64,000 nt of DNA from Escherichia coli (GTDB lineage: Bacteria > Pseudomonadota > Gammaproteobacteria > Enterobacterales > Enterobacteriaceae). Shown here piece after piece: positions 47,901 through 50,900 of the stretch. Where the stretch lies: assembly GCF_030384885.1 (NCBI RefSeq), contig NZ_CP128613.1; one strand, given 5' to 3'. How positions within the stretch are numbered: the first letter of the stretch is position 1; every line of letters begins with the position of its first letter. The position numbers were made by a program.

Positions 47901-50900
47901 GGAGGTTAAAACTCAGCGTTGAGTGGGATAAATAGCGATATAGACGTAACCACAGGAACCCAGCGTATCGGCTTCGCAGGTTAGTCCTTTGGCGTATAGC
48001 GTGACGGTACGTTGTTGGCAGGGGGAGAGTTCACCGTCAGCCAGTTTCAGCTCCAGTTGTTTCATCAACACCGGAAAAGCCTGGTCGATATGCAGCAGAT
48101 CCGGGGAGCTGAATTTCCCGGTAATTGCGGCCCGATCAGCCAGGTAATGCAGGTTATGTCTTTCCTGTACCAGTCGAGCAGTGAAGCGTGGTGTTACGGT
48201 ACAGGGAAGCCCCCATTCTTGTTGCATGACCTTGTCCTTTTGCAGCATTACAGCCAGCCCCGTTCGGCAAAAGAGAGGACATCCCCCGCCCCAATAATGA
48301 AATGATCCAGCACCCTCACTTTCACCAAATCCAGTGTCTTAACAATATTCGTTGTAATAAGTCTGTCGGCCCGACTGGGTTCCCTATGAGGTTGTCACGC
48401 ACACCACAGAATTCCTGCGCGAAGGCATCAAACGGGAGAAATTAAGCGACGCACAAATCCGCGAACTGGAAGAACAAGGCATAGATCCCAATACGCTGGA
48501 GTTTGATGGTAAGGCGCTGGATGAGGCGATCTACAACAAAGACACCAACCGCTATATCCTGCGTAACCTGATGGAAAATGGCCTGAAAGATCGGGACGGC
48601 CAGTTGCCTGGTAAAACCATCATTTTCGCCCGTAACCACAAACACGCGCTGCTGTTGAATGAATTGTTCGACGATATGTACCCGGAAGGGATTGATGCTG
48701 GCGTTGATTTTAAAGATCGCACGCAGGCGGCGTTTGTTGTACCAAAAGAAGATATTGCTGCGCAGAAATACGACCTCTCTATTAATCGTTATAAAGAAGT
48801 GGTGTATCAGGCTGAGGAGTATGAAGATCCGAAAGTGATACTGAAGCGGTTAAAAGATCTGGAAAATGAGATTCTGGCGGATCTGAATGAGCTGGAGGGA
48901 ATGCTGTGAGTTGGCCGTTAGGAAAAGTTTCCGATATTGCTGCTGTTATATCCGGTTTTGCTTTTAAAAGCGAATGGTTTGGTACAGGAGACGCAAAGGT
49001 TATCCGAATTGGCGATCTTAAGAACGGAAAAATCGATCTTAGTGATGCAATGATCTTTGATCATAAAACTAATAAAGTTCGCGAACAATTTAGAATCAAA
49101 AGCGGCGATATTTTAATGGCTCTTTCTGGCGCAACTGTTGGGAAGATCGCAGTTGCTGATGCTGAAGCTGAAGGTGCATATCTTAATCAACGAGTAGCAG
49201 TGATTCGAGGGCGAAATCATGAAAATGCAGAATATTTAAAATACGTATTTTCAGGACACCCTCTCCAAAAACTACTCCTAAATGCAGGTGGTGCGGCACA
49301 GCCAAATCTTAGCTCTAAAGACTTGGCAGAGATGGAAATACCTATTCCCCCTCTTACCGAACAAAAAAGAATCTCAACCATACTTGATAAAGTAAATGGC
49401 ATACGTCAAAAGCGCGAGCAAGCCATAAAGCTGGCTGATAATTTTTTGCATACCATTTTTCATGAGATGTTTGGCGATCCTGTTAAAAACCCGAAGGGAT
49501 GGGATGTCGCCTCTTTATTAGAATATGGTTCATTCAAAAATGGAATGAATTTTTCAAAAGGTGAATTGGGATCTGCTTTGAAGTGCCTAGGAGTTGGTGA
49601 TTTCAAATCACTGGCAACGATTACCTGTATGGACAATATCGGTGAAATTGAATTAAATACTCTTCCTTCGGATGATTATCTTTTGAAAGATGGTGATATT
49701 GTCTTTGTCCGTTCTAATGGTAATAAAGCCTTGGTCGGAAGATGTCTTACTATTTATCCAAACAAAGAGAAAGTCACATTTAGTGGGTTTTGCATTCGAT
49801 ACAGAATAAAAAATCCTGCAATCACGCCAGAATATCTCAACTTCCTTTTCCGTACACCGTCAATGAAACAGCAAATGTTGAGCGGGGGCCAAGGGGCTAA
49901 TATTCAGAATATTAGCCAAGGTACCTTATCTGCACTCAGGATACCTGTACCTCCATTGGATAAACAACTTGCTTTTGCCAGATTGGTTGATTTCCATGCA
50001 TCTATTGTGAAAAAACAATATGATAAAATGGCTGAATCCGAAAAACTCTTCAATGCCTTGACTGGTGATTTTTTCACATTTAATGAGTGATGGTTTATAG
50101 GATAACTCATTCATTACAAAATTTATTAAATACATAGAGGGGCAAATGGGTACATATATCTCAGATAAAACAGAAACATGTTTTGATGAATATTCTTTAA
50201 TCGAAAAAGTCGGGGATGGCTATAAGATTAGTGTGTACTCATTTAAGCTTCATACAGGAAATCCTTACCAGCCACATATATCAGAAAGTTATAGTGGTGA
50301 TATTTTTATTAGCTATTTGTACTATGGAAATGATTCTTATTACGAGCGCAGACGTCAGGAATACAGAAAATATTTATCATTAAAAGAAATCCACCTTGCT
50401 ATTCTAAAGATGTTTCCAGATGAGCGAAGAATTGCGATAGGTATAAAAAAAGAAAATTACAGTACCGTAAAAATAACTTATGCGGCAGCGGATGAAGTAT
50501 ATCTTCTTGATATTAAAAATAAAGAGACATTATTGTTAGATAATATATTATGTCTATATGATGTTATTTATAAGCATGAAAGCAACATTAATAAATTGGA
50601 AGGCGAGTTAGCAAGTAGTAAAAAAGAACTCCAAAGTATGAAGATAGATATAAAAGAAAAATGTAAATCTATTCTTGATATTGTTGATTAGTAAAAACAA
50701 CCCCAGTGGCAATAATTCATTGATATGGAACTCTTCTAATGGCTGAAATATTTTCTTTGCGTTATGATGTTTTGTTCTACAGCCTTGAGATTTCACGTCA
50801 GGAAAGTAACCATGCCTTTAGATTTAAGTAATACTTTAGTTATTGGCATTAGCGCAACTGCGCTTTTTGACATGAGCGAATCGGATCGCATGTTTCGGGA

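Follow-up and report, generated by a model that had tools for sequence, protein, structure and literature searches.

Type I restriction-modification systems are assigned to families by complementation, cross-reactivity and sequence (PMC3874165). In the solved type I methyltransferases the C-terminal tails of HsdM form a four-helix bundle with HsdS, and M-S assembly needs both this tail and the HsdS coiled-coil bundle (PMC9613975). Orphan hsdS genes are common in Lactococcus, where they are active in trans (PMC12418389), and the hsdS genes of lactococcal plasmids combine with HsdM and HsdR that are encoded apart from them (PMC12418389, citing Schouler et al. 1998).

The nearest complete genome to the locus described here is that of E. 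coli 2013C-4282, which a literature search placed in Escherichia cryptic clade I; the same search found no methylome for this strain. Its leuX island holds an intact operon encoding HsdR (WP_105279021.1), HsdM (WP_106907654.1) and HsdS (WP_106907655.1). E. coli W carries a homologous operon with other TRDs (29% HsdS identity outside the conserved regions). The family of the island hsdM was found in 432 of 5,426 complete E. coli genomes (about 8%). The EcoKI-type (type IA) hsdRMS system, which lies between yjiA/mrr and mcrBC in the immigration control region, is alike in its type I architecture.

The leuX-island locus and its parental operon

Our analysis covers a stretch of 64,000 nucleotides of E. 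coli contig NZ_CP128613.1 (assembly GCF_030384885.1), referred to as the window. It is colinear with the 2013C-4282 chromosome (NZ_CP027579.1) at 99.96-100% identity except for two deletions, D1 and D2, and one gap in iatD. The two share the island, its flanks and the gene order; hsdS is identical throughout (100%), and the remnants of hsdR and hsdM are both identical to the corresponding parental segments. The features of the locus are:

48248-48383, minus strand: remnant of radC (JAB-domain), only the last ~45 codons; left flank of D1, with the match ending at 48383.
48361-48909, plus strand: chimeric open frame of 182 codons (6 of antisense radC, HsdR 544-643, HsdM 469-544), lacking a native start.
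48378-48383, no strand: junction 1 (D1), 8,881 bp lost; GGTTCC microhomology common to radC and hsdR, seen in a three-way view.
48379-48678, plus strand: hsdR fragment, codons V544-M643 of 1137; identical to positions 5750-6049 of the 2013C-4282 locus (L001).
48678-48684, no strand: junction 2 (D2), in-frame loss of 2,952 bp, or 984 codons; the microhomology GTA[T/C]CCG, also seen in a three-way view, is imperfect.
48679-48909, plus strand: hsdM 3' remnant, codons Y469-L544 and the stop; 100% identical to positions 9002-9232 of the same 2013C-4282 locus.
48894-48899, plus strand: Shine-Dalgarno GGAGGG, 6 nt 5' of the hsdS GTG start, from reading of the sequence.
48906-50090, plus strand: intact hsdS (394 aa) that has two TRDs as well as the conserved helices at its centre and C-terminus; hsdM, hsdR and the native promoter are missing.

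hsdS is the only one of the three type I subunit genes found complete, as judged by its two TRDs and its conserved central and C-terminal helices. Pfam Methylase_S matches the protein in two stretches (E=1.2e-31), indicating the two TRDs, and the PADLOC model Specificity_I (PDLC03119) covers its full length (E=3e-164). The N-terminal, central and C-terminal conserved regions can be aligned with the HsdS proteins of two related islands, and the whole protein is 100% identical to WP_106907655.1 from the complete hsdR-hsdM-hsdS operon. By ORF reading, its GTG start and the TGA stop of the upstream frame share the GTGA at 48906-48909. The preliminary description of an intact 394-aa gene with two TRDs and a GTG overlapping the upstream stop is therefore borne out by ORF, Pfam, alignment and parental identity together; a search of the alignment for disabling lesions, which that description had named as a possible refutation, revealed none. 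Since hsdS is undamaged and has a good Shine-Dalgarno sequence, any read-through transcript could be translated.

Phase-variable loci, such as SpnD39III of S. pneumoniae and those of Mycoplasma, hold several hsdS copies, inverted repeats and a dedicated recombinase. A phase-variable hsdS shufflon is ruled out here, as tblastn and blastn searches of the whole window gave no second hsdS copy and no inverted repeats: hsdS matched only itself and one 23-nt internal palindrome. The sole nearby recombinase is the leuX integrase of the island (52946-54214).

The frame upstream of hsdS had been read as an HsdR-like helicase-region piece joined directly to an HsdM C-terminus, and comparison with the intact 2013C-4282 operon establishes this at the nucleotide level. 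Positions 48378-48684 match hsdR of 2013C-4282 at 306 of 307 nucleotides, with the sole mismatch inside the junction; from 48678 on, the match to the hsdM 3' end and hsdS is 100%; and tblastn places the two parts at HsdR 544-646 (99%) and HsdM 461-544. The radC remnant matches the 3' end of the intact radC of 2013C-4282 (record 2918413-2918548) at 100% identity, and the first six codons of the frame, which are antisense radC, had been missed earlier. Judged by sequence identity, the parts of the chimera are pieces of known parent genes and chance resemblance is excluded; nor is the frame a complete small gene of another family. The frame indeed has no native start, as had been claimed, but an internal ATG exists at 48571, before which there is no ATG, GTG or TTG in frame; it opens a 112-aa ORF, with no Shine-Dalgarno sequence, that gene callers reported on 12 contigs.

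Domain models add little. The search proposed earlier for the 48360-48909 translation gave no significant Pfam match with the 182-aa chimera (best DUF6844, E=0.067), so that its origin was traced by DNA identity to the parent genes; NCBIfam gave a weak HsdR match (E=2.8e-4, positions 629-724 of model NF008521). The retained HsdR and HsdM pieces lie mostly outside or at the edges of domain models. On the domain map of intact HsdR, the hsdR fragment reaches from the last part of RecA-like domain 1 into the first part of domain 2 and contains GKTIIFARNHKHA. Only codons 544-643 of the 1137 of hsdR are left, with no start. hsdM retains only codons 469-544 of 544 and has lost nearly all of its catalytic domain (residues 142-510, Pfam N6_Mtase). 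A complete type I restriction-modification system would have an hsdR with the nuclease, both RecA-like motor domains and the C-terminal assembly domain, and an hsdM with HsdM_N and N6_Mtase; as neither gene is intact, the locus does not qualify.

The hsdM remnant corresponds to the putative HsdS-docking tail. A PDB sequence search with this tail returned chance matches only, so its docking role is taken from its position and from the literature. AlphaFold, run on the chimera as a single sequence, gave a poor model (mean pLDDT 50), although the last ~50 residues are predicted to be helical (pLDDT 72-85).

Two deletions and their order

The preliminary description had supposed that a deletion removed most of hsdR and hsdM. 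Loss by deletion is confirmed by the intact operon, but there were two deletions rather than one, both resolved to the base and both with microhomology. D1 extends from the middle of radC to hsdR codon 544; with it went half of radC, hsdR codons 1-543, eight other island genes and the hsdR promoter region. D2 joins hsdR codon 643 to hsdM codon 469 in frame, at a point where both parents encode Tyr-Pro. Compared with 2013C-4282, the window thus lacks hsdR codons 1-543 and 644-1137, hsdM codons 1-468, the hsdR-hsdM spacer and the eight upstream genes.

Gene calls from two public read sets, ERR13369355 and SRR16894909, include exactly the 719-aa HsdR::HsdM fusion expected from D2 alone. The contigs concerned (L031, L032) have identical junction-2 nucleotides and retain the 5' half of hsdR and the WYL and GTPase genes. 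A look-up of the product of D1 alone (530 aa) found none on record, though the start choice of gene callers could hide one. Since the D2-only intermediate exists in public data, D2 preceded D1. Two NCBI assemblies (GCA_036346665.1 and GCA_035824455.1) and at least eight from SRA carry the double-deletion allele with 99.9-100% identity; because of this recurrence it is real and clonal. As hsdM is still present in 21 of 24 long contigs with the same HsdS, the double-deletion allele is the derived state.

It might be argued that the junctions are assembly errors, or that a single complex rearrangement captured a 300-bp filler. Neither junction is present among 5,426 complete E. coli genomes, exact-pattern scans of IMG metagenome contigs gave 0 matches for both junctions and those of GTDB representative genomes 0 matches for junction 2, the only one scanned there; moreover, the 300-bp island kept between the two breakpoints resembles filler capture. 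An assembly artefact is nevertheless rejected because identical junctions recur in many independent assemblies (two from NCBI and at least eight from SRA), and the D2-only state, found in two further read sets where junction 2 is identical, fits two steps rather than one event. Taken together, artefact or single event is scarcely credible.

We consider it most probable, at roughly 85%, that the locus is a stepwise decay remnant of a leuX-island type I operon, produced by two microhomology deletions that left hsdS as a passenger. The starting state was an operon encoding HsdR, HsdM and HsdS of 1137, 544 and 394 aa, in a defence-gene island integrated at the tRNA-Leu gene leuX; its host was an Escherichia strain close to E. 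coli 2013C-4282. Illegitimate recombination at GTA[T/C]CCG then removed 2,952 bp and produced the 719-aa HsdR'::'HsdM gene, with hsdS still behind it; by this step alone both restriction and modification were inactivated. The second deletion, of 8,881 bp at GGTTCC, took the hsdR promoter, the hsdR start and eight island genes, leaving the start-less 182-codon chimera and an intact hsdS. The latter would now be a passenger with its own Shine-Dalgarno sequence, its native promoter gone and no HsdM of its own family available. As HsdS requires HsdM for its action on DNA, it would specify neither methylation nor restriction, and its survival is presumably due only to the short time that lesions have had to accumulate. 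The persistence of the allele in more than 10 samples is compatible with neutrality, although it does not prove it.

Partner subunits, expression and the fate of hsdS

An intact hsdS could in principle serve another system, and the preliminary description had proposed two outcomes, retargeting of an Hsd complex encoded elsewhere or simply awaiting decay. HsdS would combine with HsdM and HsdR from elsewhere, either the EcoKI-like locus near mrr/mcrBC or a plasmid, and provide a second specificity. The gene is intact with its own Shine-Dalgarno sequence, orphan S subunits of Lactococcus act in trans (PMC12418389), and 2013C-4282 shows a single further type I system, a complete EcoKI-like hsdRMS that lies ~15 kb beyond the left end of the window in that genome. 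Its HsdM, however, is only 28% identical to the cognate HsdM of the island with no similarity in the C-terminal tail, the two HsdS proteins are ~25% identical and do not share their conserved regions and helices, and type I families are defined by complementation (PMC3874165).

The island system is rejected as a member of type IA (EcoKI) on the same HsdM identity, on a match to the PDB EcoKI M subunit limited to the catalytic core (E=5e-28), and on NCBIfam equivalogs for PRK11448 and EcoAI-type R subunits, whose scores fall far below their cut-offs. The Pfam model EcoEI_R_C does not discriminate between type I families, because the EcoKI-like HsdR matches it too. Cross-family incompatibility is established for the classical families and may also hold for the island family.

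tblastn across the 64-kb window found no further hsdR, hsdM or hsdS sequence, and a DNA-level search (roughly 65-70% identity or higher) located the island hsdM family in a single place on the 2013C-4282 chromosome. With this chromosome as a proxy, together with the window, no same-family HsdM partner was found at that level of identity. No sigma-70-like site was found on the plus strand between 47500 and 50500 by a crude consensus match, which weak or non-sigma-70 promoters could escape. All promoter-like sites of the intact operon, and the hsdR-hsdM spacer, fall inside D1 or D2, and the left-side neighbours of hsdS are presumably transcribed away from it. With an HsdM identity of 28% and the promoter DNA deleted, retargeting of another Hsd complex appears unlikely from these sequence comparisons, and a functional orphan has only a small chance of being correct; of the two outcomes first proposed, awaiting decay is the better reading.

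The chimera itself might matter, if the peptide of the fused frame (112 aa, or 719 aa in the intermediate) docked HsdS into a methylase-less, sequence-specific DNA-binding complex; in the intermediate such a complex would carry a tethered nuclease, and the cost of the complex could have favoured D1. What is retained of HsdM is exactly the C-terminal tail, such tails make the four-helix bundle with HsdS that assembly requires (PMC9613975), this tail is predicted to be helical, and the in-frame intermediate still has the promoter of hsdR and the nuclease domain and remains translationally coupled to hsdS. The frame in the window, on the other hand, has neither a native start nor a promoter, nor a Shine-Dalgarno sequence before ATG 48571; the M catalytic domains, also used by type I methyltransferases for DNA binding, are gone; an in-frame result is a 1-in-3 chance event; and the structure model is poor. 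We hold this reading to be extremely improbable.

Little better, and still very improbable, is the broader proposal that the HsdM docking helix still recruits HsdS, through the 719-aa fusion or the short peptide, or that hsdS is kept as a reservoir of TRDs. Were docking true, the cost or benefit of a methylase-less sequence-targeted complex would explain why D1 removed the promoter and N-terminus of the fusion and spared hsdS; were the reservoir true, hsdS would be reactivated upon arrival of a same-family island.

With stepwise decay as the preferred reading, the locus represents ordinary gene decay in which hsdS is probably idle, and it has no bearing on any open question. Its main value is for annotation: the locus ought to be left out of counts of active type I systems, the 112-aa upstream ORF is to be treated as a chimeric pseudogene, and the hsdS allele should yield no methylation motif in strains carrying the deletions. 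It is also a clean, base-resolved case in which a defence system was lost stepwise through microhomology deletions, with the parental, intermediate and final states all in public data, and with restriction and modification disabled together in the first step, the safe route of R-M loss.

Comparison with known systems

Phase-variable multi-hsdS loci resemble the window in containing hsdS sequences that are not directly expressed within an operon, but the window has one hsdS, with no second copy and none of their repeats. The orphan hsdS genes of Lactococcus are alike in that each is complete, has two TRDs and lacks a functional hsdM or hsdR next to it. They are, however, mobile and expressed, pair with compatible M and R subunits from the chromosome and give detectable methylation, whereas the hsdS of the window has been stranded in situ by deletion, with neither promoter evidence nor a same-family partner found. 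The earlier remark that an intact hsdS without a methylase is unusual does not stand, given how common such genes are in lactococci (PMC12418389) and given an independent case in E. coli PK8568.

The same leuX island in PK8568 carries a decayed type I locus of the form radC' / 'hsdM - hsdS - hsdR. As in the window, a radC remnant abuts an hsdM 3' remnant followed by an intact hsdS; the radC breakpoint lies within about 2 bp of that of the window, and the hsdM tails are 94% identical. The sequence TGGGTTCC is a candidate recurrent deletion endpoint in radC. PK8568 differs in that one deletion, independent of those in the window, produced its locus in an island that has diverged (94-97% identity), with a junction unique to that strain, and in its gene order (M-S-R), its retained hsdR of 1093 aa and its other hsdS allele (33% identity).

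The remnant of the hsd operon

The hsd locus presents an ordinary pseudogenisation of a defence operon, a kind of feature already known: hsdR and hsdM have been destroyed and hsdS is intact. Our analysis confirms the observation made in the preliminary description, supports its structural interpretation, and adds the order of two deletions. The elements concerned are:

48361-48909, + strand: chimeric open frame of 182 codons, its stop overlapping the hsdS start
48378-48383: junction 1 (deletion D1), GGTTCC microhomology between radC and hsdR
48678-48684: junction 2 (deletion D2), imperfect 7-nt microhomology GTA[T/C]CCG
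6 nt 5' of the hsdS GTG, + strand: GGAGGG Shine-Dalgarno sequence, read from the sequence
48906-50090, + strand: hsdS, ORF of 394 aa with a GTG start

The gene had been described as intact, with two target-recognition domains (TRDs), and this holds: Pfam Methylase_S matches two stretches of HsdS (E=1.2e-31), the PADLOC Specificity_I model PDLC03119 matches it end to end (E=3e-164), and it is 100% identical to hsdS of the intact operon in 2013C-4282 (NZ_CP027579.1), the closest complete genome. The overlap of its GTG with the TGA of the upstream frame (GTGA at 48906-48909) was likewise read correctly. The allele is rare: a search of 5,426 complete E. coli genomes met it at full length in one alone. 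Between the HsdS of the window and those of E. coli W and PK8568, conservation extends over the N-terminus, the region of the central helix and the C-terminal region, whereas both TRDs of the window protein are unlike those of the other two, as expected of a specificity subunit.

The upstream frame, as had been noticed, lacks a start: no ATG, GTG or TTG precedes an internal ATG at 48571. From the two junctions it therefore consists of six antisense-radC codons, HsdR V544-M643 and HsdM Y469-L544, a layout that tblastn with the intact subunits as queries confirmed. By the domain map of intact HsdR, the retained piece is the end of the ResIII/RecA-like domain 1 plus the first helicase-C motifs; that of HsdM is the extreme C-terminus, past almost all of the N6_Mtase domain. 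A domain search of this translation, which the preliminary description had proposed, gave no significant match in Pfam and a single weak, HsdR-type match in NCBIfam (positions 629-724 of 1123 of a type I endonuclease model, E=2.8e-4).

Deletions in the leuX island

From record position 2868592 on, the chromosome of 2013C-4282 and the window run colinearly at 99.96-100% identity, bar three gaps; this strain has been assigned to Escherichia cryptic clade I (PMC10100065). An island has integrated here at tRNA-Leu (leuX), and the region forms its fim-nan side; at leuX, the hsdM family of the island operon is found in ca. 8% of complete E. coli genomes. In 2013C-4282 the order is cbtA, cbeA, radC, a DUF932 gene, a hypothetical gene, an inovirus-Gp2-family gene, an HTH gene, a second hypothetical gene, a GTPase-family gene, a WYL-domain gene, hsdR (1137 aa), hsdM (544 aa), hsdS (394 aa), a 181-aa hypothetical, a 5'-nucleotidase gene, a phosphorothioate-DNA-binding restriction endonuclease pseudogene, and the integrase. 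Other features of the window are:

11906-15538: iatD ORF, 1210 aa remaining
ca. 40656-40861, + strand: second endonuclease copy, truncated and frameshifted, at the opposite island end beside a truncated nanS
41129-44644, - strand: yjhR, 1171-aa helicase/PLD protein that looks intact, full-length match to PADLOC MkoC (Mokosh type II; E=0)
47541-48248, - strand: cbtA/cbeA, both genes intact
50146-50691: 181-aa ORF directly 3' of hsdS, ca. 30% GC, no match in Pfam, NCBIfam or PADLOC
50764-51777: 5'-nucleotidase-family gene matching PADLOC candidate defence family PDC-S08 (E=3e-135)
51855-52775, - strand: phosphorothioate-DNA-binding restriction endonuclease (ScoMcrA-type SBD + HNH), interrupted by an internal stop that leaves ORFs of 182 and 120 aa, identically in 2013C-4282
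54415-54499: leuX tRNA-Leu

The position between hsdS and the nucleotidase gene looks like a variable cargo site, with other hypothetical genes (582 and 88 aa) in E. coli W. Most of the 63-bp hsdR-hsdM spacer in the intact operon is taken up by a strong terminator-like hairpin (L001 7547-7566 of 2013C-4282; stem of 8 bp, 6 of them GC pairs, followed by a T-run), so that a separate promoter for hsdM-hsdS would have little space.

Most of hsdR and hsdM was indeed lost by deletion, as first proposed, but through two deletions rather than one, and a few antisense-radC codons entered the frame. At junction 2 the parent sequences are ...GACGATATGTATCCGCAG (hsdR) and ...CAGCAGTACCCGGAAGGG (hsdM), and the window reads ...GACGATATGTACCCGGAAGGG, with the crossover inside the microhomology. 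D2 removed 2,952 bp, or 984 codons, and since the parental genes lie in one reading frame it joins HsdR M643 in frame to HsdM Y469; the direct joining of an HsdR helicase-region fragment to the HsdM C-terminus had been recognized correctly. At junction 1 the parents are ...GACTGGGTTCCGCCACG (radC) and ...AATCTGGTTCCCTATGAGG (hsdR), and the window reads ...GACTGGGTTCCCTATGAGG. D1 removed 8,881 bp, taking everything 5' of the cbeA antitoxin gene except the last ca. 45 radC codons; if the cbtA/cbeA pair used a promoter 5' of radC or of the DUF932 gene, that promoter is lost. The third gap, with AA(A)CCC microhomology at 12019-12036, cost the inverse-autotransporter gene iatD ca. 1.57 kb. Its annotated start at ca. 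11873 now reads into a TGA at ca. 12033 and the ORF that is left begins in a different frame, which makes iatD a probable pseudogene. The 64-kb window therefore differs from 2013C-4282 by three microhomology deletions against ca. 9 SNPs.

Spread of the allele and order of events

Neither junction occurs in any of the 5,426 complete E. coli genomes; junction 1 was absent from IMG metagenome contigs, and junction 2 from these and from GTDB representative genomes. Twelve contigs on record carry the 112-aa ORF that starts at ATG 48571, among them contigs of several SRA assemblies and of NCBI assembly GCA_036346665.1, and the same arrangement is present in a further assembly, GCA_035824455.1. All double-deletion contigs are 99.9-100% identical to the window over both junctions, which marks the allele as genuine and spread by clonal descent. 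Their hsdS genes show two SNPs, one synonymous (F313) and one V266I, too few for any statement on selection. Among long contigs with an identical HsdS (n=24), hsdM still lies upstream in 21 and the deletion is seen in three, which makes the deletion the derived minority state.

The protein expected from D2 without D1 was built from HsdR 1-643 and HsdM 469-544 (719 aa), and a called gene encoding exactly this sequence occurs in each of two independent read sets, ERR13369355 (L031 3001-5160) and SRR16894909 (L032 779-2938). These contigs agree with the window in the nucleotides of junction 2 and still have the 5' half of hsdR together with the GTPase and WYL-domain genes, all lost from the window through D1. 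The fusion comprises the DUF4145 domain, HsdR nuclease domain, RecA-like domain 1 and HsdM C-terminal tail, with its native promoter region and its coupling to hsdS retained. A look-up of the D1-only product found no record. The most economical history is that D2 came first, fusing hsdR to hsdM in frame, and that D1 followed, leaving behind an intact hsdS and the start-less chimera.

Function of the stranded hsdS and comparison with known systems

HsdS functions only within an M2S1 or R2M2S1 complex, in which the C-terminal tails of M form a four-helix bundle with the coiled coil of S, and deleting these tails abolishes assembly (PMC9613975). No other hsd sequence was found in the 64-kb window by tblastn, and on the 2013C-4282 chromosome, a proxy for the genome of the window, the cognate hsdM family occurs at one position and has no second locus. 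The other type I system there is an EcoKI-like hsdRMS between mrr and symE/mcrBC, ca. 15 kb past the left end of the window. Its HsdM is 28% identical to the cognate HsdM, with a tail without similarity, and its HsdS lacks the conserved helices of the window HsdS. Complementation, cross-reactivity and sequence set the limits of type I families (PMC3874165); by sequence the neighbour is of a different family, and HsdS would be incompatible across families, to extrapolate from the classical ones. D1 and D2 together took away the hsdR upstream region, the hsdR-hsdM spacer and all sites of the intact operon that were predicted to be promoter-like; a crude promoter scan predicted no sigma-70-like site on the + strand of 47500-50500, and radC', cbeA and cbtA, left of hsdS, lie on the opposite strand. 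Given the need for M, the lack of partner genes in these searches, the foreign family of the neighbour and the missing promoter, we infer that hsdS, left without hsdM, hsdR or its native promoter region, is inert here. The earlier suggestion that it could retarget an Hsd complex encoded elsewhere is unlikely on the same grounds. Docking of the HsdM-tail chimera on HsdS with some activity, chiefly in the D2-only intermediate, seems very improbable.

The locus is not a complete type I system, since two of the three defining components survive only as fragments, nor a phase-variable multi-hsdS locus, as hsdS is the only specificity gene that tblastn recovered in the window. Comparisons with families IA-IE did not assign the parental system to any of them. 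Lactococcal orphan hsdS genes act in trans (PMC12418389); the window gene is not a demonstrated trans-acting orphan of that kind. A parallel in layout is E. coli PK8568 (NZ_CP080126.1), where the intact hsdS of the same island likewise follows an hsdM tail, itself preceded by a radC remnant. Its deletion is independent, lying in a diverged leuX island and joining radC to the hsdM 3' end (L003 8098-8106, against 48378-48383 in the window), and each junction is unique to its own lineage. The radC breakpoints, marked by a slash, are ca. 2 bp or less apart (…GACTGGGTT/GCCGG… in PK8568, …GACTGGGTTCC/CTATG… in the window). Both share the TGGGTTCC site in the conserved JAB motif of radC, which may mark a deletion hotspot or be shared by chance. 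The window locus is a decayed member of the type I family found at leuX.
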